NCBI GenBank assembly: GCA_041665925.1
Contig: JBAYHW010000006.1
Span: forward strand, 1 to 46,082
Direction of reading: 5' to 3'
Source of the DNA: Minisyncoccota bacterium
GTDB lineage: Bacteria; Patescibacteriota; Minisyncoccia; Phycocordibacterales; UBA9973
Length of the DNA stretch: 46,082 bases
Under the pieces are notes generated by a model. It ran no database searches. It was not told the origin of the DNA and saw only the letters and a list, made by a program, of their open reading frames with translations. Below are positions 6,157 to 38,438 of this stretch, piece after piece. The first letter of the stretch is position 1, and every line of letters begins with the position of its first letter. Position numbers and translations under genes: made by a program.

Positions 6157-9100
6157 ATGCCTGAAGAAAAAGAACAATTTATCCATCTCCATACCCATTC
6201 GCACTATTCTCTCTTAGATGGGCTTTCTAAGCTTGAAGATTTAGTAGATTTAGCTAAAAAATTCAAAATGTCAGCTTTGGCCATCACTGACCACGGCAAT
6301 ATGTATGGAGCTATTGAATTTTATAAATTGGCAAAGGAGGCCGGGATTAAACCCATACTTGGGGTGGAGGCATATATCGCCAACCGCAGTAGACTAGACA
6401 AAGATCCAGGAATAGATAATAAAAGATTTCATCTTACCTTGTTGGCGAAAAATCTTCAGGGTTATAAAAATTTAATGAAGCTGGTGACTCTTTCTCACAT
6501 AGAGGGATTTTATTATAAACCACGAATGGATAAAGAGATCTTGAGACAATATTCAGAAGGTATCATTGCTCTATCGGGGTGCCTAGGTGGAGAACTTTCT
6601 CGTGCACTTGCAAACAAAGATGAAGAAAAGGGAGAATTAATAATAAGAGAGCATCAGGAAATTTTCGGTAATGAAAATTATTTTCTAGAAATACAGCACC
6701 ACACAGATGTACCAGATGACGAAGAAGTAAGAAATAGAATAATAAAATTGAGTAAAAAATTAAATGCTCCGCTGGTTGCAACTATTGATTCTCACTACCC
6801 CCTGAGTGGAGACAATAAGGCGCATGAAACCCTGCTCGCTATCCAAACGAATTCTGACATAAAAGACGACAATAAATTCTCTTTCGGAGATAGTGATTAT
6901 TCGTTTATAAGTACAGAAAAAGCCTTAGAAATATTTAAGGACACGCCCGAGGCTGTAGCGAACACGGTAAAAATTGCCGATATGTGCAACACCGAACTTG
7001 AGTTAGGGCGCTGGGTTTTCCCTGATTTTAAGGTGGAAGATGTGAAAACATATAATGAAAAACTCCGTGAGCTTACTTTCGAAGGAATAAAAAGACTCAA
7101 TATAAAAGAGACACCAGAAGTAATTGAGCGAATAGAATATGAGCTCAAGATTATTGTTGACAAAGGTTATTCGCCATATTTCTTGGTGGTTGGTGACCTT
7201 TTAGATTATGCCAAGAAAAACAGCATCCTAACGGCCATCCGCGGTTCAGTCGCTGGCTCTATGGTTACATACCTTCTAGGTATTACAAATATCAACCCGA
7301 TAGAATATAAAATTCCTTTCGAAAGATTCTTAAATCCATTTCGACCATCTGCTCCCGATATAGACATGGACTTCGCCGATAATCGCCGAGACGAAATGAT
7401 AGAATATGTAAAAAGTAAATATGGTAAAGATAAAGTTGCTCAAATAGGAACCTTCGGAACGATGATGGCCCGTGGAGCAGTACGAGATGTAGCACGAGCA
7501 CTAGCCTATCCGTACACAATAGGAGATAGAATTTCTAAAATGATTCCTATGGGTTCTCAGGGCATGCCCATGACCATAGAGCACGCGATGGAAATAGTCC
7601 CTGAATTAACTGATGCATATAACAAGGAAAAAGACACCAAGGAAATAATTGACCTCGCCAAAAAGCTTGAAGGCTGTGTCAGACACATTTCTGTGCACGC
7701 AGCTGGAGTCGTCATCGCACCCAAGCCACTTTCAGAATACACCCCGATACAATTCGACCCGAAGGGTGGCAAAATTATTACTCAATACGATATGTACAGT
7801 ATTGAAGAAGCTGGACTTTTAAAATTTGATTTCCTGGGAATTAGAAACTTAGCAATCCTAGCCGATGCCATAAGTTTGGTTAAAAAATTCTATAACATTG
7901 ATATTAATATAGAAAATATTCCTCTCGATGATAAGAAGACCTTCGTGATGTTAGCTAATGGACAGACGGAAGGACTCTTCCAACTTAATGGATCTGGAAT
8001 GACTAGATACCTAAAAGAGTTAAAACCAACATCAATTCACGACATCAATGCCATGGTTGCCCTGTATCGCCCGGGCCCCATGGAATCCATTCCCGAATAT
8101 ATTAAACGCAAACATAATCCAAGACTCGTAAAATACTTAGACCCAAGAATGAAGAAATTTTTAGGCGAATCTTACGGGCTCATAGTTTATCAAGACGATT
8201 TACTCCTTTCAGCTATTGAACTCGCTGGTTATAACTGGGAAGAAGCCGACAAATTTCGAAAAGCCGTCGGTAAAAAAATTCCGAAAGAAATGGCCGCCCA
8301 AAGAGAAAAGTTTACTAAGGGAATCATTACCAATGGACAGACGCCAGAGTTTGCAGAAAAACTTTGGAAACTTTTTGAACCATTCCAAGCATATGGATTC
8401 GGAAAGGCGCACGCCGCCTCATACGGTAAAGTCGCTTATCAAACTGCCTATATGAAGGCGAACTATCCTGTGGAATACATGGCAGCCATCCTGACAGCGG
8501 AGTCCGGCGATGTGGAAAAAATCGCTGAAATTATAGAGGAATGTAAACATATGAAAATACCGGTGATGCCTCCGCATATAAATGAAAGTTATGGCGGATT
8601 TACTTGCCTCCCAGAAGAAAAAGATACAGTTATAACCGAAGAAAATAAAAGTAAAAAAATAAGGTTCGGTTTATATACGATAAAAAATTTAGGCACAGAT
8701 ATATCTGATACTATCATTTCAGAGAGAAAATTAAATGGGAAGTTTAAATCGATTACAGACTTTTTAGACCGCATCAAACACAAAAATTTAAATAAGAAAT
8801 CCATGGAAGCATTGATAAAGTCAGGATGCATGGATGACTGGGTAGACCGCGGTATTCTACTTGCCAATCTCGAAGCTATGCTGGAATACAATCACGAAGG
8901 TTCTAAGCAAAACGAAAATCAAACTTCTCTTTTCGGCGGAATAACTTCAGTAAAAGTTCCTGAATTTAAAATGCAGGAGGCCAAGGAAGCAACTCAAGCA
9001 GAAAAACTACTTTGGGAAAAAGAACTACTGGGACTCTATATTTCTGGACATCCCCTTGACCGTCTGCGTGATAAATTAGAAAAACGTACCATGAATATCA

Positions 9101-23317: not shown

Positions 23318-23728
23318 ATGGAACCAAATCAAAACGAGCAAGTTCCCCCAGTGTCTCCACAGGGCAGTGTGGGTGGGTCATCTTTTACTCCTCCCCCTTC
23401 TCCACAGGGCAATATCGGCGGGAATACCGGCCTGGCTATTGTTGCTTACTTGTGGATATTAGTAATAGTTCCACTAGTGGCCAACAAAGACAACGACCCT
23501 TTTGTAAAATTTCACGCTAAGCAAGGGCTCATCCTACTCATCGCCTGGGTGATAGTGAGTGTTTTTAATAGCATGTTGTGGCGAATGACGTTTTCTAGTT
23601 TTGGCATCGGTTCACTCCTCAACCTTGGTTGCTTTATACTTATGATTTTCGGCATTATTAATGCCTCTAGTAGACAAATGAAAGAACTCCCACTTATCGG
23701 GCATTTAGCAAGTAAGTTTACTTTCTAG
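23318..23728 (+). CDS. DUF4870-like membrane protein
   Basis: Pro-rich N-terminus, AIVAYL, FVKFHAKQG, three TM helices, LPLIG. Confidence 0.8.
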   Translation: MEPNQNEQVPPVSPQGSVGGSSFTPPPSPQGNIGGNTGLAIVAYLWILVIVPLVANKDNDPFVKFHAKQGLILLIAWVIVSVFNSMLWRMTFSSFGIGSLLNLGCFILMIFGIINASSRQMKELPLIGHLASKFTF

Positions 23729-23745
23729 CTAGTGAAGTTCGGCGA

Positions 23746-25293
23746 CTAGGGCAATTGTGAAGTCGTCGGGCGGCAAACCCCTTTTGAATCCGCGTCATAC
23801 ACGGCTTTTACTTCTTCTGCTGTTATGGCCTTGGTCGCAATCATTATTTCGTCTATAGCACCATTGAAATACCGACCCGGAAAATATGGGTGGCTGCCGA
23901 TTCTAAGGTTTTGCGCACTCGCAACACGAGAAACCTTTAGGGCTCTCTCTTTTTCTAATACCCCATTCACGTACATTTTTAACCCGGACGAATCCCACGT
24001 TCCCGCCACGAGATACCATGTTCCCGTTTTCACTACTGTGTCCGACGCTACATCGGTGCCTGTTCCAACATAAAAGTGAAATTTATTATCTTTGTTTATT
24101 TGAAGATCAAAATCTTTGCCCTCACTCCCCTTTCCAACAATTTGCATAATGTGAGATGCGGAAGGCAAAGAATCAACTTTGACCCAAGCCATGATGCTGC
24201 CAGCCTTCGTGGGATCGTTGTAAACACTGCTCGAGGCATCCAAGTATGCAGTAACGCCATTAAACACATGCGCGTCTTCTACTTTGCCGGGGGCAGAGGA
24301 GAGACCGCCCCTGGGAAAGCCAATATTATTGTGCTTCCACTCCATGGCTTCGGAATACCAGGCAGTTAACCCCAATGGTTCTTTGGCGCAAAAAGCGCCG
24401 GGTTTGGCTTTGACTGCGTCAGCGCCTTGCGCAACCTCTGGAATTTTAATAAGAAGAGATTGCTTAATGGCATTAAAATCTTCAGCGTATTTTTCAAACA
24501 ATCCCGCGGTGGCGGTAGCAGTCAATACAAAATAATCGCTTCCCGCTAAAACCATATATTGCTTTTGAATTATTTTTAGATCTCCGTGCGAAGTGTCATT
24601 AAAAGTGAACTTTATTTCATGGGCAGGATATCCTTCTGGGGTCACTGTTTCATCCTCGCTTAAAACGAAATAGGACGGTGTATCAGAAATCCATGTCGCC
24701 TTAGAAGCTTCGGCTATTTGTTTTATTGTGGTACCGGGTGCTATGGGAGAGATGCGGGCTACGCTCAGATTGGCAGTAAAATTTTCCTCGGCGGGAGCAC
24801 GAAAGTAATCTGCTCCGTCTTTATCATTGTGGGTCCAAAGCCTGGGGTATGTTAGAGAATAGTATTCGTTCGAAAAAAATTGTTTCTGAGCCTCAGAACT
24901 GATTGGTTCTGTTGATATTTGTACGCTACCCTCACTCGACTGATTAGAAAGTCCGTTTTGGAAAGGCCAAATGTGCTTGTAGTAAGTATATCCGCTTGCG
25001 ACCCCTAAAAGTAAAAAGATGATAAATACCAAAACGTAAAGTCCAGTGTGACTTTTTTTCTGCACATACATACCAGGTGTCATGGTTTGTTGTACTTGTC
25101 GTGGCTGAATAGTCGGCGTAGGGGCTTGAGGTGAAACTGGAATTGAACTCGTAACAGGTATTGGTGAAATCCCCGCTTCTTTTAGATCAGCTTCGCTCCA
25201 GCCACCCGACAAAAGATTTTGATATATTTTCAAGTCAGGCATGCCTTGCATACGAGCCTGTTTTATGTAATCTTGCAATTCTTGAGTAATCAT
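23746..25293 (-). CDS. Membrane-anchored protein with PsbP-like and C-terminal LamG/concanavalin-like domains
   Basis: TM helix near residue 90; YSLTYPRLW...YFVLTATA (PsbP-like); SIMAWVK, WYLVAGTWD, LKMYVNG, FNGAIDE (LamG). Confidence 0.75.
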   Translation of the reverse strand: MITQELQDYIKQARMQGMPDLKIYQNLLSGGWSEADLKEAGISPIPVTSSIPVSPQAPTPTIQPRQVQQTMTPGMYVQKKSHTGLYVLVFIIFLLLGVASGYTYYKHIWPFQNGLSNQSSEGSVQISTEPISSEAQKQFFSNEYYSLTYPRLWTHNDKDGADYFRAPAEENFTANLSVARISPIAPGTTIKQIAEASKATWISDTPSYFVLSEDETVTPEGYPAHEIKFTFNDTSHGDLKIIQKQYMVLAGSDYFVLTATATAGLFEKYAEDFNAIKQSLLIKIPEVAQGADAVKAKPGAFCAKEPLGLTAWYSEAMEWKHNNIGFPRGGLSSAPGKVEDAHVFNGVTAYLDASSSVYNDPTKAGSIMAWVKVDSLPSASHIMQIVGKGSEGKDFDLQINKDNKFHFYVGTGTDVASDTVVKTGTWYLVAGTWDSSGLKMYVNGVLEKERALKVSRVASAQNLRIGSHPYFPGRYFNGAIDEIMIATKAITAEEVKAVYDADSKGVCRPTTSQLP

Positions 25294-31586: not shown

Positions 31587-31600
31587 AGAAATATTATAAC

Positions 31601-31630
31601 AAAAAACCCATACGAAAGTATGAGTTTTTT
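31601..31630 (-). terminator. Terminator hairpin, probably the original tRNA-Asn terminator displaced by the insertion
   Basis: AAAAAACCCATAC-GAAA-GTATGAGTTTTTT, 3 nt outside the left direct repeat. Confidence 0.75.
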
Positions 31631-31633
31631 GTT

Positions 31634-31642
31634 TTTGGCTCC
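31634..31642. repeat. Distal att core (9-bp direct repeat)
   Basis: TTTGGCTCC, identical to 37689-37697. Confidence 0.8.
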
Positions 31643-31749
31643 CTCTAGTAAGCAAGTTCAGAACTCTTAATTGGAATGCTATCAAAAGCGAACTGCAATT
31701 TAGTGGAATACTTTCTCTATACCAACAAGAAACGGCTTTTAGTTTATAA
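31636..31749 (+). other. Stranded C-terminal coding tail of the serine recombinase; in frame only after circularisation
   Basis: Reads WLPLVSKFRTLNWNAIKSELQFSGILSLYQQETAFSL*, with no start codon of its own; begins with the same TGG CTC C as the integrase end. Confidence 0.75.
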
Positions 31750-31936
31750 GTTAGTACCAGTCGTTAGCATGGTTACGTTCTAGTACCATTCAGAACTCGT
31801 TGATACCAGATGGGATAAGAGTGTAAACGAAAGGGTGTCTGCTTCTTTCGTTTTACGAATTAAGGGTAGTGGGTGTTTTCTTTCTCGGACATTTTTATTT
31901 GGCGGGGATGCCCTAATATATTTAGAAAATTTCCAG

Positions 31937-33217
31937 CTATTTTTTCTTGTCATTCAGGTCTTCAAACTCTGGATTCACTGTTTCTTCTTTTTTCTTAGAC
32001 CCCATCGGTGGAAGAGGTTCTATTTTTTTAGGAGGCGGAAGTTTTTTGGGGAAGATTTTTACCCTCGTCTTCTCATCTTCTTTGGTTACTTCTTGTTTGT
32101 GTTGCCACCTTTCGCCGCGAGGAGCCAAGTATGTAATTCCGTAATCAAAAAACGTATTGTTTTTAGTTTCAACAAAAATATGTGGGCATTTAGCAATGGT
32201 ATCTCCTAGTGGGTCTATTTCAACAATTCTTTCATAAGGAATCACAGCCTCTATCTCAAAGAAAGCTTGATTATCGCGTTCGATTGTATCAAGAAAATCG
32301 TGTGCACGGCGAAATGAATCATCGTAATCTTTAGGTTTGTTCCAAAAATCTTCGTGACCCCAGGCTAGATTCACTTCTTCAGTGTAATCCCACTCAAGAA
32401 GCTTCATTCCATTAAAATCAATTTTTCTATAAGCTGGATACCTCCTGGTCATTAGCCTAATTCCTTCATGAGTATGACCCATAAAGTAATAGGTTTTCCA
32501 TCGAGGATGCTCTTTGAAATCTGGTATTGCTCCGCTATAGGGATAGTTTGTATCATTGGCATCACGAACCAAAACTTCCATAAATGATTCGCGGTCTACA
32601 GCACCAAGATGTTTGACCACTTTTCTTTTAGTTGCTAATAAGCTACGAATTTGGGTGGCGACAGTTCGTCTTCTGATTATTAGAGAAATACCAAAATACC
32701 CATAGAGCAAATTGTCATTCTTTGGTTGGAATAACATATCCTCTAAATCCGCCTTTCCCCATAAATAAAATTCCTGCACGCCCTTTTCGCGCATTTTTTC
32801 TCTGAATGCATCACGTGTCTTTTTTGAGAAATCACAAGGTGCTGCAAAAATAACTCCATGGGGAATATCCGCTCCCCTGGGTATCATTTCATCAACATAT
32901 TTATTAATTTTTGCAGGAGCAATAGTTTTTTCCCTTTTACATTGAATCTGCCAGAGTCTGTCTAATGAAGAGGATATCAGCTCTTCCTCTAATTCATCCT
33001 CACTATCTTTTGTGGGCTGTTGGTTAGTTGCGCCAGCTACTTCAAAACCTCTTGCATCATACCCATCATCTGCACCTAGTCGTCCTGTAGGCTCAAGTAA
33101 ACGCCATTCCCTAAAGTCATATATAAGCTGGCGTACTAAATCCTCGAAACGATGAGGTTCAAGGTCATTGAAGGGTAAAGGATTCAAGGTCCTGGTTGTT
33201 GTAGGAGTTTTTTTCAT
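31937..33217 (-). CDS. Restriction-endonuclease-like (Mrr-type PD-(D/E)xK) protein, putative defence cargo
   Basis: RFEDLVRQL, G-x-x-GADDGYDARG, WQIQCKR in the N-terminal third; C-terminal domain unrecognised. Confidence 0.7.
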   Translation of the reverse strand: MKKTPTTTRTLNPLPFNDLEPHRFEDLVRQLIYDFREWRLLEPTGRLGADDGYDARGFEVAGATNQQPTKDSEDELEEELISSSLDRLWQIQCKREKTIAPAKINKYVDEMIPRGADIPHGVIFAAPCDFSKKTRDAFREKMREKGVQEFYLWGKADLEDMLFQPKNDNLLYGYFGISLIIRRRTVATQIRSLLATKRKVVKHLGAVDRESFMEVLVRDANDTNYPYSGAIPDFKEHPRWKTYYFMGHTHEGIRLMTRRYPAYRKIDFNGMKLLEWDYTEEVNLAWGHEDFWNKPKDYDDSFRRAHDFLDTIERDNQAFFEIEAVIPYERIVEIDPLGDTIAKCPHIFVETKNNTFFDYGITYLAPRGERWQHKQEVTKEDEKTRVKIFPKKLPPPKKIEPLPPMGSKKKEETVNPEFEDLNDKKK

Positions 33218-33223
33218 TACTAC

Positions 33224-33232
33224 TGTGGATAA
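33224..33232 (-). promoter_or_regulatory. Perfect DnaA box 6 nt upstream of the nuclease gene start
   Basis: TGTGGATAA on the plus strand. Confidence 0.45.
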
Positions 33233-33443
33233 CCAATTGGCATCTAGTGCTATCTAGTACATTCGGTTACGTTCTTATTCTATTCCACTTGTCTTTACTT
33301 TACAATGGTATACACGGTAAAATTACATTGTTCATCGAAAATAATCCCAGAGTGAGGAGATAAATTATCAAATCACTACGTGCTTCAGTAAGATGAAGCA
33401 TTGCGTCGGGCGAAGGGAAACCCGCTAGGTAGGAATCATTGAG

Positions 33444-33528
33444 AAGCTACCATTTCAGCTCACATTTTTGTGGGATGCGATGGTAGCTTTTTACTTTCTG
33501 CAAACCGCAACTAATTGAGTTGCGGTTT
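33444..33528 (+). promoter_or_regulatory. Tandem stem-loops upstream of the rep operon (candidate origin or attenuator)
   Basis: AAGCTACCAT/ATGGTAGCTT (33444-33453/33480-33489) and AAACCGCAACT/AGTTGCGGTTT (33502-33512/33518-33528) followed by a T run. Confidence 0.55.
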
Positions 33529-33530
33529 TT

Positions 33531-33704
33531 ATGTTATCTACACAAGCAAAAAAAGAAATTAAGCATATTGAGGAAAAACCAAACAAAGTTGGTTTGACCC
33601 GAGAAGACAATCAGAAACTTGTTGATGTCTTCGCGTTGCTTATTAAAGTAGATAAAAGAATAAGCCCCCACCTTTATAAGCCTAATAACGCTACAAATGA
33701 TTGA
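33531..33704 (+). CDS. Small hypothetical protein, 57 aa (not in the ORF track)
   Basis: MLSTQAKKEIKHIEEKPNKVGLTREDNQKLVDVFALLIKVDKRISPHLYKPNNATND*; stop overlaps the rep start. Confidence 0.65.
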   Translation: MLSTQAKKEIKHIEEKPNKVGLTREDNQKLVDVFALLIKVDKRISPHLYKPNNATND

Positions 33705-34854
33705 TTCAATATGCCTTTCAATTCCGTGTAGTGAAGTAAAGGACATTGAGCCTAATGCCCAGAGCATTACTGCATGGGAATTACATTCCAAGACTAAGCG
33801 ATACACGAAGTATGTAAAAAATGTTTCTGTAAATAAATCAGGAACTTACTACCCTCATCTGACAAGGTACACGAAATGGTTTAACCAAGAAGCCAACGTA
33901 CGCATAGAGTTCTCTGTTCCAAAACTGTTTTTTCAAAACAATCTCGATGAACTAGAGGATGCAGATTTCCTAAATGTTATTACTGTTCTACAAAAACGTT
34001 TACATGAAATGGACGTATCTATTTCCAAAGAAGCCCTGGTGAATAGTGTGGTAAGTGGGGTCCATTTCTCAAAGAATATCGTCTTGGAAAATGGATACAC
34101 AACCAGTTATCTTATAAGTGAAATGAATAAAATAAATCTTAGGAAAGTTTTTGATTTTACTCGCGCAAAGTATACAAATGATGGTCAAAGCCTTTATGCT
34201 CACACGGCTTCGCATGAACTTATTATTTACGACAAAGTAGCGGATATACTGGCAAGTGAAAAAAGAGCTATGGATAGAGGTCAATCTGCCTATCAGCGAA
34301 GTATCTTTGCGGGGGTAGAAAAGAAGAATTTGCCCGAAGTCATACGCTTTGAAGTACGACTGGTTCGTAAACCGAAAATGAATAGCGTTCTCGGAAAAGT
34401 TGGACATAGTAAAAATCCAACTTTTAAGGACGTATTCAATTCTCAATTAAGTCGGAAAGTTATTTTGCTTTACTGGCAAGAAATTATAAAGGCTGGAGGC
34501 AGTGTGGCCTTCTCAATCCCTCTAAGTAGCAAAGACATGTTGCGGGCTATCTTTATGGCGAATAAGGACATGAAGGCAAAGCAAGGAATTTACCTAGCTG
34601 GGTTATCAATTATTGCTAGAGATGGGATAAGAGAACTGCGCTCAATAGTTTCAAAGCAATCAGGAGAACGGACATGGTACCGAATTTCAAAAGATATTGC
34701 GCTCGTAAATAGTCTTATTACACAGAATAGAGTCAGAGACTGGGTACGACAGATAGACCACAAACTTGCAAATTATAAAACCTATAGAACAGGTAGGTTA
34801 TCCACCTTACCAATTTGTAATGTAAAGAAAAGTAAAGTATCATCATTGATATGA
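33697..34854 (+). CDS. Phage/plasmid replication initiator, gene II/X / Rep_trans-like (rolling-circle type)
   Basis: MIDSI, RIEFSVPKL, VHFSKN, LIIYDK (candidate catalytic Tyr), IRFEVRL. Confidence 0.7.
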   Translation: MIDSICLSIPCSEVKDIEPNAQSITAWELHSKTKRYTKYVKNVSVNKSGTYYPHLTRYTKWFNQEANVRIEFSVPKLFFQNNLDELEDADFLNVITVLQKRLHEMDVSISKEALVNSVVSGVHFSKNIVLENGYTTSYLISEMNKINLRKVFDFTRAKYTNDGQSLYAHTASHELIIYDKVADILASEKRAMDRGQSAYQRSIFAGVEKKNLPEVIRFEVRLVRKPKMNSVLGKVGHSKNPTFKDVFNSQLSRKVILLYWQEIIKAGGSVAFSIPLSSKDMLRAIFMANKDMKAKQGIYLAGLSIIARDGIRELRSIVSKQSGERTWYRISKDIALVNSLITQNRVRDWVRQIDHKLANYKTYRTGRLSTLPICNVKKSKVSSLI

Positions 34855-35414
34855 AAAGAGTAATTATCGTACATCAGTGGATGGCTGGAGCTGAAGCAGA
34901 TTGGCGGCCTTGGCTAAAAAATGAGTTAGTCAAACAAGGTTATGAGGTGTTGGTACCAGATATGCCAGAAATTGATACTCCTGTTATTGATAAGTGGGTG
35001 AATCATTTATCAACCATTGTGGGCATCCCCGACGAAAACACTATTTTTATTGGACATAGTATTGGATGCCAAGCAATTTTGCGCTATTTGGAAACCATAG
35101 ATGTATCTATTGGAGGGGCAATATTCGTTGCTGGTTGGTTTACACTCACTGGTATGGAAGATGAAGAAGTTGAAAAAATAGCTGAACCATGGATAAAAAC
35201 TCCAATAAATTTTGAAAGGATAAAGGAGGTATTGCCAAAATCTATTGCTATCCTTTCTGATAATGACCCCTATGTACCCTTGGAGAGTACAAGAATGGTG
35301 TTCGAAAAAGAGCTGGATACAAAAGTAACCGTTATTCCTAACGGTGGACATATTACTGCCGATGATGGTTTTACAGAGTTGCCACAAGTTCTTAGTGAAC
35401 TTCAAAAATTATAA
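34851..35414 (+). CDS. Alpha/beta hydrolase, RBBP9/YdeN family
   Basis: GHSIG nucleophile elbow, SDNDPYV, GGH triad. Confidence 0.88.
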   Translation: MKRVIIVHQWMAGAEADWRPWLKNELVKQGYEVLVPDMPEIDTPVIDKWVNHLSTIVGIPDENTIFIGHSIGCQAILRYLETIDVSIGGAIFVAGWFTLTGMEDEEVEKIAEPWIKTPINFERIKEVLPKSIAILSDNDPYVPLESTRMVFEKELDTKVTVIPNGGHITADDGFTELPQVLSELQKL

Positions 35415-35418
35415 AAAT

Positions 35419-35595
35419 ATGAAAAACAAAGAATTTTATACTGCAAAAGACTTGGCTGACAAATTAGGAGTAAATATTATGACTATTTATCGTTATATAG
35501 GAGCTAAGAAACTCAAAGCATACAAGTTAGGAAAAGAATTTAGGATTGAGAAAAAGGACTTCAACAACTTCCTTAATAAAGTGAAAACAAGGTGA
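35419..35595 (+). CDS. Excisionase/MerR-like HTH DNA-binding protein (candidate recombination directionality factor)
   Basis: FYTAKDLADKLGVNIMTIYRYIGAKKLKAYKLGKEFRI; start MKNKEF at 35419. Confidence 0.85.
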   Translation: MKNKEFYTAKDLADKLGVNIMTIYRYIGAKKLKAYKLGKEFRIEKKDFNNFLNKVKTR

Positions 35596-36200
35596 TTTAT
35601 ATGCCGAGCAAAGGTTACAAAATGAGCAAGGAACATAAAGACGCTATATCTAAGGCGCTAAAGGGTCACGTCTCTTCTGAGGAAACTAGAAGAAAGATTG
35701 GTCTGGCTAATAGAGGTGTTTGGATAAAGTTCAATTGTGATTATTGCGGAAAAGAAAATGAAGAGAAACAATCACATTATAAGAAAAAGGTACGACATTT
35801 CTGTGATGCAAAATGCTATGCATCTTTCGTAAAAGAAAAACAGCCATTAGGTGAAAAGAACGCGTATAAGGGAGTAAGGAAGATTGGTGAAAACAAACAG
35901 GTTTATCATCGCAATTATGTAAAAAATCATCCAGAAAATATAGCTCACTTAAAAGCTCGAAGATATGCACGAGAGCGAAATGCTGAAGGCAGTCACACTT
36001 TGGCTGAGTGGATTGCATTAAAACTTAAATACGATAATAAATGCATTCATTGTAAAGAGTTTAAGCCACTCACAAAAGACCACATCTTACCTTTAGCAGA
36101 AGGAGGTACAGACTATATTCACAACATTCAACCCCTCTGTCGAAACTGCAATAGCAAGAAATGGAAGAAATTGGACTACGTTATTTCCCAAAAATTATGA
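35592..36200 (+). CDS. HNH endonuclease with N-terminal NUMOD3-like repeats and a Zn finger
   Basis: HKDAISKALKGHVSSEETRRKIG; CDYC; CIHC...TKDHILP...GGTDYIHNIQPLCRNCNSKK; start is GTG 35592 or ATG 35601. Confidence 0.85.
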   Translation: MIYMPSKGYKMSKEHKDAISKALKGHVSSEETRRKIGLANRGVWIKFNCDYCGKENEEKQSHYKKKVRHFCDAKCYASFVKEKQPLGEKNAYKGVRKIGENKQVYHRNYVKNHPENIAHLKARRYARERNAEGSHTLAEWIALKLKYDNKCIHCKEFKPLTKDHILPLAEGGTDYIHNIQPLCRNCNSKKWKKLDYVISQKL

Positions 36201-37705
36201 AAGCAATAAAAGTCTCACGCGTATCAACAGAAGAACAAAAAGAAGCTGGTAATTCACTCCCAGCTCAAATTAAACGTATAGATGATTATTGCAAAAGAAA
36301 GGGCTTTGAGGTCATTCGCTCTTTTAGTTTTGATGAGAGCGCTTACAAAGATAAACGGGATGAGTTTGATAAGTTGGTTGAATATGTCCAAGACATTGCG
36401 AAGAAAGAAAAAATAGCAGTTTGTTTTGATAAAGTAGACCGTCTTTCAAGAAGTGTTTTTGATTCAAGAGTGGGCACTTTATATCAAATGTCCGTAGAGG
36501 GAAAAATTGAGCTTCACTTTGTTTCTGACAACCAGGTTTTGAACGGTAGTTTATCTGCAACAGAGAAAGGTGGTTTTGGTATGAGTCTTGTGATGGCAAG
36601 CTATTATTCAAATGCAATTAGTGACAACGTAAAACGAGCATTTGAACAAAAACGCAGAAATGGTGAATGGACTGGAGGGGTACGCATAGGATACAAGAAT
36701 GTATCACTTGATGTTGAGAAGAGATTAAGAAAAGATATTATTCTTGACCCCGACAGAGCACATCTAGTTCAAATGATATTTGAGCTTTATGCCACTGGAA
36801 ATTATTCGATGGAGGCAATTCGGGTGAAGATTACTGAAATGGGATTAAGAACTCGTGACGGAAACGTTTTATCGAAGAGTGGAATAGAAAACATTTTGAA
36901 AGATAGTTTCTTTTGTGGGATTGCTGTATCAAAGAAATACAACCTGACTTGGGTTCATAATTATCCTCGCATCACTACAAGGGAGATATTTGATAAGTGT
37001 CAAGAACTACGAGCAAAACGAAAGACATCACGCCCAAAATCTCTCTCAAAGGATTTTATATTTAAGGGTTTACTTAAATGTCAGAACTGCGGATGCTCAA
37101 TGAGTGCTGAAATTAAAAAGGGGCGTTTTGTTTATTACTCCTGTACAAATGCAAAGCGTATTTGTAAACGAGTATATGTGCCTGAAAAGACACTCCTTGA
37201 GCCTGTGTACGAGCTTCTGGGACGCTTTGAGAGCATTAAAGAGGAAGTTCAAGATGGCCTGGTTAGGGAGCTAAGGAAGAACACAGAATCAGAGGTGGTT
37301 TTCCATAAAGCCCAGATAAGTCGTATCACCAGTGAATATGAACAGATAAAATCGAAAGATGACAGGTTGCTAGAAAGGTATCTTGAAGACAGCACGAGTA
37401 TTACTAAAGATATCTATGACAAAAAACATCAAGAATATGCTGATGCACTCCAGGTCCTAGAGATAGAACTTAGTGAAAATAGAAAAGCGGACTATGACTA
37501 CCAAACCACGGTAGCTACTGTGGTTTCTGTTGCTCGTCGCGCAAAGCAAATCTTTGAAGGTTCTGAACCATCTGAAAAACGAGCACTTTTAAACTATATA
37601 CTTCAGAACCCAACCGTAAACGAAAAGAAGCTATGTTTTTCAATAGCTTCTCCGTTCAATCTAGTCCTAGACCTAGCTGATAGTCCTATTTGGCTCCGGG
37701 GGTAG
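36197..37705 (+). CDS. Large serine recombinase (integrase); 3' end reads into the tRNA
   Basis: RVSTEEQ catalytic motif, DKVDRLSR, recombinase domain, CQNC...YYSC Zn ribbon, coiled coil; ends TGG CTC CGG GGG TAG antisense to the tRNA 3' end. Confidence 0.93.
   Translation: MKAIKVSRVSTEEQKEAGNSLPAQIKRIDDYCKRKGFEVIRSFSFDESAYKDKRDEFDKLVEYVQDIAKKEKIAVCFDKVDRLSRSVFDSRVGTLYQMSVEGKIELHFVSDNQVLNGSLSATEKGGFGMSLVMASYYSNAISDNVKRAFEQKRRNGEWTGGVRIGYKNVSLDVEKRLRKDIILDPDRAHLVQMIFELYATGNYSMEAIRVKITEMGLRTRDGNVLSKSGIENILKDSFFCGIAVSKKYNLTWVHNYPRITTREIFDKCQELRAKRKTSRPKSLSKDFIFKGLLKCQNCGCSMSAEIKKGRFVYYSCTNAKRICKRVYVPEKTLLEPVYELLGRFESIKEEVQDGLVRELRKNTESEVVFHKAQISRITSEYEQIKSKDDRLLERYLEDSTSITKDIYDKKHQEYADALQVLEIELSENRKADYDYQTTVATVVSVARRAKQIFEGSEPSEKRALLNYILQNPTVNEKKLCFSIASPFNLVLDLADSPIWLRG
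37689..37697. repeat. tRNA-proximal att core (9-bp direct repeat)
   Basis: TTTGGCTCC, overlapping the tRNA-Asn GGAGCCA 3' end and the integrase W-L codons. Confidence 0.8.
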
Positions 37706-37731
37706 GGATCGAACCTACGACCAATCGCTTA

Positions 37732-38286
37732 CACTTATCCTCTTATTACTAAAAGGGATGGACTATATCATCTTCATATTTTGAAAATAAAATTTTCAAA
37801 ACTTAGAAGCAAGGCGCTTCGACTGATTTTGAATCAGGCTACTCCTCGAAAGGATAGTCTCTGAACCTGCCCTAAACTTTAGGGATTGGCTGCTGATTGC
37901 CCTCTGGTGAGGGTTTCCAGCAATTCACCTTGTTTTCGATCTATTTTTCAATAGAAAGCTGCGTTATACCTGACTCGACTTCTCTGTGACAATTTGCACA
38001 AAGTAGCACACACTTATATAATTCTTTTTGCACGATACTCCACGCACGAGTGTATCCCTTATCACCAACCCCAAAACTTTTATCTTTGGAATTTATATGG
38101 TGAAGTTCAAGGGCACCAATACATTTTGTATATCCACAAATTTGGCATTTGCCGCCTTTGTATTCAACTGCAAGAACTTTTATTTTCTTGCGTCGTTTTG
38201 CAACAGCTTTAATAAGTGCTTCTCGTCTATCGGCATATTTCCTATTATCTGGCATAAATCTATCATACCAAAGGGTGGAAATTTCC
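37732..38286 (-). ncRNA. Group I intron, 555 nt, at anticodon position 35/36
   Basis: 5' exon ends in U and the intron ends in G. P AAUUGCUGGAAA (37925-37914), Q AAUCAGCAGC (37898-37889), R GUUCAGAGACUA (37866-37855), S AUGAUAUAGUCC (37771-37760); IGS GCAG (37962-37959) pairs with exon CUGU with a U-G pair at the splice site. Confidence 0.92.
37941..38255 (-). CDS. Intron-encoded HNH homing endonuclease
   Basis: CQICGY...LELHH...CVLLCANCHRE; lies in the L1 loop, and its last codons encode the IGS; ATG 38255 preferred over GTG 38288. Confidence 0.85.
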   Translation of the reverse strand: MPDNRKYADRREALIKAVAKRRKKIKVLAVEYKGGKCQICGYTKCIGALELHHINSKDKSFGVGDKGYTRAWSIVQKELYKCVLLCANCHREVESGITQLSIEK

Positions 38287-38438
38287 ACAGGCGACCGCTC
38301 TACCGCTGAGCTACCCCGGAATTTATTCTTTTTTCTAAGGAACTTTACCTATATTATCAGAAAACACAGAAAAAACAACAAAATTTGTGCCCCTTCCCTG
38401 ACCACAAATCCTTTATGAATATGATGTATAATAGAAAC

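Follow-up and report, generated by a model that had tools for sequence, protein, structure and literature searches.

A small element integrated at a tRNA-Asn gene

The window analysed here, by which we mean the whole stretch of 46,082 nt, comes from a Minisyncoccota bacterium (GCA_041665925.1, contig JBAYHW010000006.1, positions 1-46,082, forward strand). An initial annotation, made from the sequence alone, had described positions 31634-37697 as an integrative element that combines a rolling-circle-type replication protein (Rep) with a serine integrase, carries no virion or conjugation genes and would excise as a circle of 6055 bp. We analysed the genes of this element, its target site and its relatives. 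Apart from this, the window consists of ordinary chromosome, with DnaE, glutamine synthetase and phosphoglucomutase among its genes.

From the small open reading frame (ORF) orf57 to the integrase, the genes form the tightly coupled operon that had been claimed, with overlaps of 8, 4, 4 and 4 nt and a single 4-nt gap (Table 1); the 4-nt overlap between the HNH gene and the integrase gene assumes ATG 36197 as the start of the integrase. The assignments of the serine integrase, the excisionase (Xis)-like HTH_17 protein, the HNH endonuclease, the hydrolase and the nuclease on the opposite strand were all borne out by Pfam, NCBIfam and homologues. The integrase begins with a resolvase catalytic domain (PF00239, E 2.4e-17; N-terminal motif ...KVSRVSTEEQ...), its C-terminal half matches PF07508 (E 1.7e-13) and PF13408 (E 5.6e-9), and the whole protein matches phrog_95, 'integrase', at E 2.4e-73. 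The HTH_17 protein is our candidate for the recombination directionality factor. The 426-residue nuclease has no Pfam match of its own; its homologues carry PF04471, and one of them is named 'restriction endonuclease' in its source. One amendment concerns the status of these genes: the nuclease, the hydrolase and the HNH endonuclease are cargo of the window copy only and lie outside the backbone of the family described below.

In Pfam, PHROGs, NCBIfam and PADLOC, no protein of the element matched a capsid, Zot-like, type IV secretion system (T4SS) or canonical relaxase family; Pfam, PHROGs and NCBIfam likewise gave no match to the FtsK/TraB family. The orf57 product lacks a membrane-spanning stretch and is therefore not a coat protein. 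The claim that virion and conjugation genes are missing held in these searches, but the statement that there is no relaxase was too strong, because proteins of the Rep_trans type are the MobT relaxases of Firmicutes elements (PMC5704250).

The repeat TTTGGCTCC is present in the window in exactly two copies, 6055 bp apart, in agreement with the predicted size of the circle. By chance, 0.35 copies would be expected, and at least two copies occurred in 5 of 100 shuffles, so the 9-bp repeat alone is weak evidence and the case depends on the context of both copies. That context is a tRNA gene on one side and its displaced terminator on the other. When the two exons are spliced, they form a canonical 75-nt tRNA-Asn(GUU), with splice sites placed by group I rules (the exon ends in U and the intron in G). 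The intron (Rfam RF00028, 88 bits, match at 37739-38019 on the minus strand) is 555 nt long, lies between anticodon nucleotides 35 and 36 and encodes an HNH homing-endonuclease-like ORF at 37941-38288. The spliced tRNA has exactly the anticodon arm of the tRNA-Asn genes that are uninterrupted in relatives. ARAGORN reported no tRNA at the junction, and only a tRNA-Ala elsewhere in the window, because the group I intron splits the gene. A transfer-messenger RNA at 37691-38050 was considered and rejected, since Rfam identifies an intron-split tRNA there. Rfam also found a group I intron at the matching tRNA-Asn junction of four related loci (L018, L019, L045 and L074), and the tRNA-Asn genes of L014, L021 and L060 are probably intron-bearing as well.

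On the far side of the element, a terminator scan found a minus-strand hairpin, with 16 pairs and a T-run after them, directly against the left repeat. This is as expected if the hairpin was the tRNA-Asn gene's own terminator, which the insertion would have moved by about 6 kb, and it agrees with the displaced host terminator that had been proposed outside the distal repeat.

Table 1. Coordinates of the element, its target site and genes of related elements discussed in the text
Feature	Coordinates	Strand	Remarks
Intrinsic-terminator hairpin, host DNA just outside the element	31598-31633	minus	16 pairs and T-run
Left junction, tRNA-distal	31634-31642		TTTGGCTCC; family-wide core GCTC at 31638-31641
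Detached integrase 3' end	31636-31749	plus	WLPLVSKFRTLNWNAIKSELQFSGILSLYQQETAFSL and stop
426-aa Mrr_cat-type restriction endonuclease relative, cargo	31937-33217	minus	homologues with PF04471
Structured non-coding leader	33380-33530	plus	fold z-score -7.4
orf57, small backbone ORF, 57 aa	33531-33704	plus	overlaps Rep by 8 nt
Rep, 385 aa	33697-34854	plus	divergent, G2P/Phage_CRI-like; overlaps hydrolase by 4 nt
Ser_hydrolase (PF06821) alpha/beta hydrolase, cargo	34851-35414	plus	E 2.4e-24; 4-nt gap before HTH_17 gene
HTH_17 / excisionase-family DNA-binding protein, backbone	35419-35595	plus	overlaps HNH gene by 4 nt
NUMOD3 and HNH endonuclease, 202 aa, cargo in the Xis-Int slot	35592-36200	plus
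Large serine integrase, integrated 502-aa form	36197-37705	plus	Resolvase, Recombinase and Zn_ribbon_recom domains
Right junction, tRNA-proximal	37689-37697		TTTGGCTCC; TGGCTCC reverse-complements the tRNA 3' end, GGAGCCA
Target tRNA-Asn(GUU)	37691-38320	minus	exon 1 38320-38287, group I intron 38286-37732, exon 2 37731-37691
Gene upstream of the small ORF, L001	8996-9793	plus
Gene upstream of the small ORF, L084	5354-6097	plus
Gene upstream of the small ORF, L080	253-978	plus
Gene upstream of the small ORF, L003	8584-9771	plus
Gene upstream of the small ORF, L077	6183-7271	plus
Gene upstream of the small ORF, L078	3710-5293	plus

A family with a constant backbone and a 4-bp core

The initial annotation had proposed a survey of neighbourhoods in which Rep and a serine integrase occur together. 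Our survey covered 66 genome loci and metagenome contigs, and about 50 related loci, mostly labelled Patescibacteria, share both the backbone and the junction at a tRNA 3' end. Record titles name Paceibacteria, Gracilibacteria, Uhrbacteria, Wolfebacteria (complete genome CP011209), Komeilibacteria and Magasanikbacteria, and a few of the bin labels are doubtful. Gene order was constant in every locus with enough downstream sequence: Rep, the HTH_17 gene, a cargo slot of 0-5.4 kb and the serine integrase. The HTH_17 gene directly follows Rep in essentially every locus, and in most loci small ORFs homologous to orf57 (45-59 aa, motif ...E(D/E)(K/R)xxLV...) lie upstream of Rep. In all loci the integrases are orthologous to that of the window, with identities of 44-77%.

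The target site is similarly constant. In most loci the 3' end of the integrase gene overlaps the 3' end of a minus-strand tRNA-Asn(GTT) gene, which is mostly uninterrupted; alternative targets are tRNA-Gln in L031, L037, L042 and L066 and tRNA-Asp in L059. About 45 left junctions align base for base, each running from a host hairpin through a T-run and (TG)GCTCC into a conserved arm, CTCTAGTGGACAAGTTCAGAAC. We set the element ends by anchoring on the conserved FRT codons of this arm, the core being too short for longest-common-substring calling. The 26 elements delimited in this way measure 5382-11737 bp (median 7356 bp) and share junction cores of 5-11 bp, with only the 4 bp GCTC common to both junctions in every pair. 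The 9-bp repeat of the initial annotation is therefore real in the window copy, but the obligatory core of the family is only 4 bp; on this comparison, the remainder of the repeat is extra identity that appears dispensable. So short an obligatory core fits a serine integrase, which needs only the central dinucleotide.

Evidence for mobility and for a circular form

Three kinds of observation agree with the integrative element that had been proposed. The backbone recurs at the tRNA junctions of about 50 loci. One element, at least 99.8% identical between copies, sits in differing flanks in the metagenome contigs L003, L004, L006 and L007. In L042 (10001-19726), a minimal family member, with no cargo between Xis and Int, is present twice in tandem at a tRNA-Gln gene, the copies being 6441 bp apart; the junction between the copies resembles the attachment site of a circle (attP), so the upstream integrase is full length.

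Excised forms were found among the relatives. In contigs L077-L081 the integrase gene runs straight into what is the left end of integrated copies, which is the attP arrangement. Two of these contigs, L080 and L081, come from two sequencing runs or samples; each is 9436 nt long, its ends overlapping by 30 nt. With the overlap trimmed, the two contain the same 9406-bp sequence, exactly rotated, and it holds no host genes. The simplest reading is that they are a single closed circle. The contigs L077-L081 are those of proteins of 531-547 aa, which were returned by a search with the integrase plus its predicted tail (described below) and cover 98-99% of that query.

For the window element, the predicted circle junction is ATTTGGCTCC-CTCTAG, that is, ...GATAGTCCTATTTGGCTCC joined to CTCTAGTAAGCAAGTTCAGAAC..., and the predicted empty site is ...GAGTTTTTTGTTTTTGGCTCC joined to GGGGGTAGGGATCG.... 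The attP of the relatives' contigs, such as AGTCCTAACTGGCTCCCTCTCGTGGACAAGTTCAGAAC in L077, agrees with this predicted junction. A second assembly (L009, sample ERZ27249449), whose contig is identical to the window, holds the element in the same integrated state.

The sample of L009 also contains a second family member, L083, whose integrase is 84% identical and which carries a DNA_methylase and RE_HpaII system; its downstream flank differs, so that it appears to sit in a different host genome. In four contigs (L003, L005, L007 and L008), the integrase is followed not by a tRNA but by sequence like the left arm of another element and then by an island with type III restriction-modification and AAA_13 genes, which is inverted in L007 relative to L003. 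This suggests that several elements accreted at one site, with a possible recombinase-mediated inversion.

A predicted exchange of the integrase end on integration

The left end of the element is itself coding sequence. Read in the frame TGG CTC, it encodes D-K-F-R-T-x-N-W-x-x-I-K-S-E-L-x-F-S-G-I-L-x-L-F-P...L-Q-N-stop, a peptide that lies upstream of Rep in nearly all loci and in a fixed register to the GCTCC core. Among 48 distinct sequences, variability at the first, second and third codon positions was 0.89, 0.62 and 1.20 bits, and clear third-position wobble continues for 40-80 nt past the crossover, a sign that a protein is under selection. The stretch TTCAGAAC is conserved at all three codon positions, as would be expected if it is both coding and a binding site for the integrase.

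In every delimited element, the frame of this tail is continuous with the integrase gene across the core. In the integrated window copy the tail frame has no in-frame start codon and is preceded by a TGA four codons upstream of the core; if the two repeats recombined, the tail would be joined in frame to codon W511 of the integrase. The detached tail in the window is still an open frame of 37 codons that agrees with the family consensus. As read from these sequences, the integrase encoded by the circle would end in a conserved tail of about 35 residues and measure 535 aa in the window element, whereas the integrated integrases end in W-L followed by 2-11 residues read from the antisense strand of the tRNA (WLRG-stop in the window). 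Because attP lies inside the integrase frame, integration would swap the tail for these few residues and excision would restore it. The catalytic and DNA-binding domains of the integrase all lie upstream of the exchange point; plausible roles for the tail are control of the direction of recombination or protein stability.

Placing attP in a coding sequence has parallels among tyrosine integrases, in SSV-type archaeal elements and in the mycobacteriophages BPs and Brujita, which have integration-dependent immunity. As in those systems, integration alters a protein. In SSV1, however, the integrase gene is left as two non-functional parts, and in the mycobacteriophages the repressor gene is cut, whereas the present family exchanges only the last ~35 codons of a serine integrase. 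We found no precedent for a serine integrase shortened by integration in the literature searched, the coverage of which was incomplete. Coding-sequence attP sites are known for the tyrosine systems, namely the SSV1 integrase and the mycobacteriophage repressors, and we know of none for a serine integrase; if our reading is right, this would be, to our knowledge, the first serine integrase whose C terminus depends on its integration state.

Rep belongs to a large and divergent family

A word-indexed search returned 669 homologues of Rep, nearly all of them unannotated, with the few named ones from Patescibacteria, and a profile search extended the family to at least 1119 clusters at 50% identity. 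One member is named 'Replication initiation protein' in UniRef. Phage_CRI (PF05144), which represents the N-terminal part of G2P, was the only recurrent Pfam family, matching 7 of 44 diverse members (best E 5e-7). One protein, P0269, which matches the Rep family profile at E 1.5e-60, scored 27.1 bits on Phage_CRI against a curated cut-off of 21.7. Among 32 closer members, two matched Rep_trans (PF02486; best E 7e-5). In an alignment of 44 sequences with 27-64% identity to the window Rep, the residues Y178-D179-K180 and E219 do not vary, whereas R217 and R221 are nearly invariant. In pT181 RepC the active-site Tyr lies in "IYNK", with "RVEIEL" further on, a pattern to which these Rep motifs may be equivalent. 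In a Foldseek search of BFVD, an AlphaFold model of Rep (predicted local distance difference test score, pLDDT, 79; predicted template modelling score, pTM, 0.75) matched three predicted viral proteins (E 1.8e-9 to 9.4e-6), of which one belongs to an Inoviridae genome. We read the family as a divergent branch of the G2P/Rep_trans superfamily of nicking initiators, on the strength of homology at the family level and as a member of neither Pfam family.

In both Pfam and Foldseek the Rep family is matched best by replication proteins of filamentous phages, and the element might instead be a satellite or a stripped-down relative of inovirus-like phages. It would then have kept a G2P-like replication module and an integration module and nothing else, and a helper inovirus would package and export it. 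A size of 5-12 kb without virion genes would fit a satellite, and inoviruses have been predicted in genomes of the Candidate Phyla Radiation (CPR), some with serine recombinases (PMC6813254). We nevertheless consider this very unlikely. Neither the window nor the annotated examples among about 60 relatives contain a pI/Zot ATPase, a coat protein or other morphogenesis genes, and the small ORF has no transmembrane segment. We identified no packaging signal, IMG/VR viral contigs and GenBank phages yielded no relatives, and cargo of restriction-modification genes is typical of plasmids and islands. A tblastn search with the window Rep and P0269 found nothing in PLSDB plasmids or GenBank phages.

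The RS1 and TLC satellites of Vibrio cholerae show how such a life cycle works: they span a few kilobases, integrate at dif through the host XerCD recombinases and have known helper inoviruses. The present family is like them in being an integrated element of a few kilobases with a G2P/Cri-type replication protein and no virion genes. It differs in its own large serine integrase, its tRNA targets, its restriction-modification cargo and the lack of a known helper.

Cargo genes and a conserved leader hairpin

The slot between Xis and Int mostly carries defence genes. In 15 relatives examined it holds restriction-modification systems (types II, IIG and III) or an Mrr-type nuclease, and in 8 loci a single ORF of 157-223 aa with no assigned function. 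A second cargo zone lies between the tail and the small ORF, with, for example, DUF2779, SocA_Panacea, Fic or DUF3800 proteins. Most relatives also have a plus-strand gene directly upstream of the small ORF (Table 1). These genes fall into several families, none with a Pfam match on record: one of 241-265 aa in about 27 loci, and others of 395, 362 and 527 aa. The window copy is atypical in its Mrr_cat-related nuclease on the opposite strand, its hydrolase between Rep and Xis and the HNH gene in its cargo slot; neither the 426-residue nuclease nor the Ser_hydrolase has a counterpart in the other elements among the loci compared. In the left cargo region of one related element, L021, Rfam reported a LOOT RNA (RF03000, 69 bits) at 7981-8106 on the minus strand.

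A terminator-like hairpin next to the small ORF recurs in the family. It was seen in 37 of 40 elements, where its end lies 0-6 nt ahead of that ORF's ATG, and has a median z-score of -4.6. Its stem is built from many different sequences, so that the structure is kept while the sequence varies. In the window, the hairpin at 33502-33528 ends 2 nt before the orf57 ATG and closes a 150-nt leader with three further hairpins upstream. RNAalifold found no structure in a MAFFT alignment of this region, because the stems are out of register in the alignment; folding each sequence separately reveals the hairpin. The hairpin is a candidate attenuator of Rep expression or a candidate replication origin. 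In plasmid pT181, a terminator likewise lies just 5' of repC.

Elsewhere in the window, G+C content rises to as much as 0.45 at 23500-25000, compared with about 0.36-0.40 in other parts; this rise overlaps the gene for a 515-residue protein with Laminin_G_3 and DcrB domains (23746-25293, minus strand).

A model for the element and its alternatives

We consider it likely that 31634-37697 is an intact-looking integrated copy of a small, plasmid-like integrative element of Patescibacteria that forms a circle, replicates it by a Rep-driven rolling-circle mechanism and carries defence cargo. In this model the serine integrase would recombine attP with the last bases of tRNA-Asn, the crossover falling within GCTC (GAGC on the tRNA strand). 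The element would provide a replacement ...CCA end, so that the tRNA stays whole. The HTH_17 protein would probably act as the directionality factor for excision. In the circle, the G2P/Rep_trans-like Rep would nick an origin, possibly the conserved hairpin next to the small ORF, and start rolling-circle replication, as its homology and the free circles suggest; the circle would thereby be able to persist as a plasmid. The backbone would in this way spread defence cargo, mostly restriction-modification systems, in place of which the window copy has an Mrr-like nuclease, an HNH endonuclease and a serine hydrolase. The route of spread from cell to cell is not encoded by the element; uptake by natural competence, which the initial annotation had suggested, is compatible with everything seen.

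A related possibility gives Rep a different main role. The element would then be an integrative mobilizable element (IME) in which Rep is chiefly a MobT-type relaxase that nicks an origin of transfer (oriT) on the circle after excision, the strand is passed to a chromosomal T4SS of the monoderm type and replication is secondary. This overlaps with the model above, and as the principal account of the element we regard it as rather unlikely. Rep falls in one superfamily with the MobT relaxases of Tn916, ICEBs1 and ICESt3 and of many streptococcal IMEs, some of which have serine recombinases (PMC5704250). The element also has what marks an IME: it brings a module for integration and excision, att sites included, but encodes no machinery for transfer. 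According to the literature, T4SSs of the MPF_FATA class with VirD4-like proteins are widespread in Patescibacteria whereas detectable relaxases are almost absent, and the Rep family is too divergent for standard models, so that relaxase screens would have missed it. On the other hand, Pfam favours the phage initiator over Rep_trans for this family, no annotated relative encodes a TcpA/FtsK/VirD4-like coupling protein, and the T4SS of Patescibacteria is thought, also in the literature, to be non-conjugative and essential. Still more tentatively, and in our view improbable, the Rep family could be the missing 'very different relaxase' of the Patescibacteria T4SS, with the elements riding that T4SS from one CPR cell to another and the exchange of the integrase C terminus switching between a circle proficient for integration and a state of stable integration.

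Several observations weigh against the model of a replicating, plasmid-like element. The window Rep itself had no match at E <= 0.01 in Pfam, PHROGs or NCBIfam and none in PADLOC, and it matched neither PF02486 nor PF05144 directly. PDB sequences gave no match to the single protein or to the family profile, and Foldseek found nothing for the Rep model in the PDB at E <= 0.001, Rep_trans structures included. When the family alignment was compared by hhalign with the single protein IKe gpII, the match was weak (E 0.013, probability 3%), although its pairing of RFEVRL with RFEARL speaks for the initiator reading. No conserved nick sequence or origin was identified in the family, and a simple test for dyad symmetry in the attP consensus was at chance level, with no clear symmetry. 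The closed-circle assembly could in principle arise from tandem repeats, although a tandem array normally breaks an assembly at the att branch points. When JGI metagenomes were scanned for exact matches, neither the circle junction nor the empty site of the window copy was recovered, and its boundaries rest for this reason on comparison with the family. None of the gene families found upstream of the small ORF in relatives occurs in the window element, which may therefore be a reduced variant.

Measured against these results, the rolling-circle-type initiator proposed in the initial annotation holds at the level of the family, through the Phage_CRI matches and the score of P0269 above the cut-off, but the window protein itself remained unmatched. 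The profile check that it had called for came out in the same way, empty for the window protein and positive for family members on Phage_CRI or Rep_trans. For the replication-initiator fold, the lack of a PDB match stands against the three viral matches in BFVD. Similarly, the excised circle that it predicted is seen in attP-bearing contigs of relatives, but not for the window copy.

Some of the same observations would fit a fixed genomic island, a decayed remnant that neither excises nor replicates and whose genes are kept solely for defence. The window copy is known only in the integrated state, from two assemblies (the window and L009), its circle junction was not found, and it lacks a gene that most relatives carry. 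Against this, all backbone ORFs are intact and tightly coupled, the detached integrase tail has stayed open and consensus-like over its 37 codons, both junction cores are intact and close relatives are demonstrably mobile. We judge a fixed island to be highly improbable.

Relation to known elements

The plasmid-like element that we favour is closest in function to IMEs of Firmicutes that combine a Rep_trans/MobT protein with a tyrosine or serine recombinase, for example IMESag-rpsI or IME_Sga2069_rpmE (PMC5704250). Like them, it is small and integrated and has a site-specific recombinase, a nicking protein of the Rep_trans superfamily, cargo and no transfer apparatus; on excision they also form a circle, which may undergo rolling-circle replication (PMC5704250). 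It differs in its host phylum and in its Rep, which forms a separate and very divergent family nearer to phage G2P models. Site-specific serine-recombinase IMEs are described as inserting into dispensable genes and disrupting them (PMC5704250), whereas the present family targets and restores a tRNA 3' end. It also has an HTH_17 Xis-like gene, an attP within the integrase frame and no coupling protein, and its mobilization is only putative.

The arrangement of the operon recalls a different group of elements. The actinomycete integrative and conjugative element pSAM2 has a repSA-xis-int operon, integrates at a tRNA 3' end and replicates its excised circle by the rolling-circle mechanism; its integrase is of the tyrosine type, and for transfer it has a TraB/FtsK-like DNA translocase. 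Here, too, initiator, excisionase and integrase are co-oriented in one operon and a tRNA 3' end is the target, but the integrase is a serine integrase, Rep is unrelated and there is no TraB/FtsK-like gene. The element thus resembles both the Firmicutes IMEs and the rep-xis-int design of pSAM2 in function and is a member of neither.

Implications for Patescibacteria

No earlier description of this family was found in the searchable literature, of which our coverage was incomplete. Plasmids of CPR bacteria have been called "rarely studied", and a groundwater survey found only 17 (PMC12023590). The window element is one member of an apparently very common and well-defined family, with a predictable attachment site at tRNA-Asn, a conserved attP and a cargo slot filled mostly by restriction-modification genes. 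If our model is correct, the family would be a concrete vehicle for the exchange of defence genes in a phylum with tiny genomes. Patescibacteria have become transformable only recently, and a compact replicon with a site-specific integrase and defined sites would be useful for their genetics. Under the same condition, the Rep family would offer a candidate, open to test, for the relaxase that the Patescibacteria T4SS is missing.

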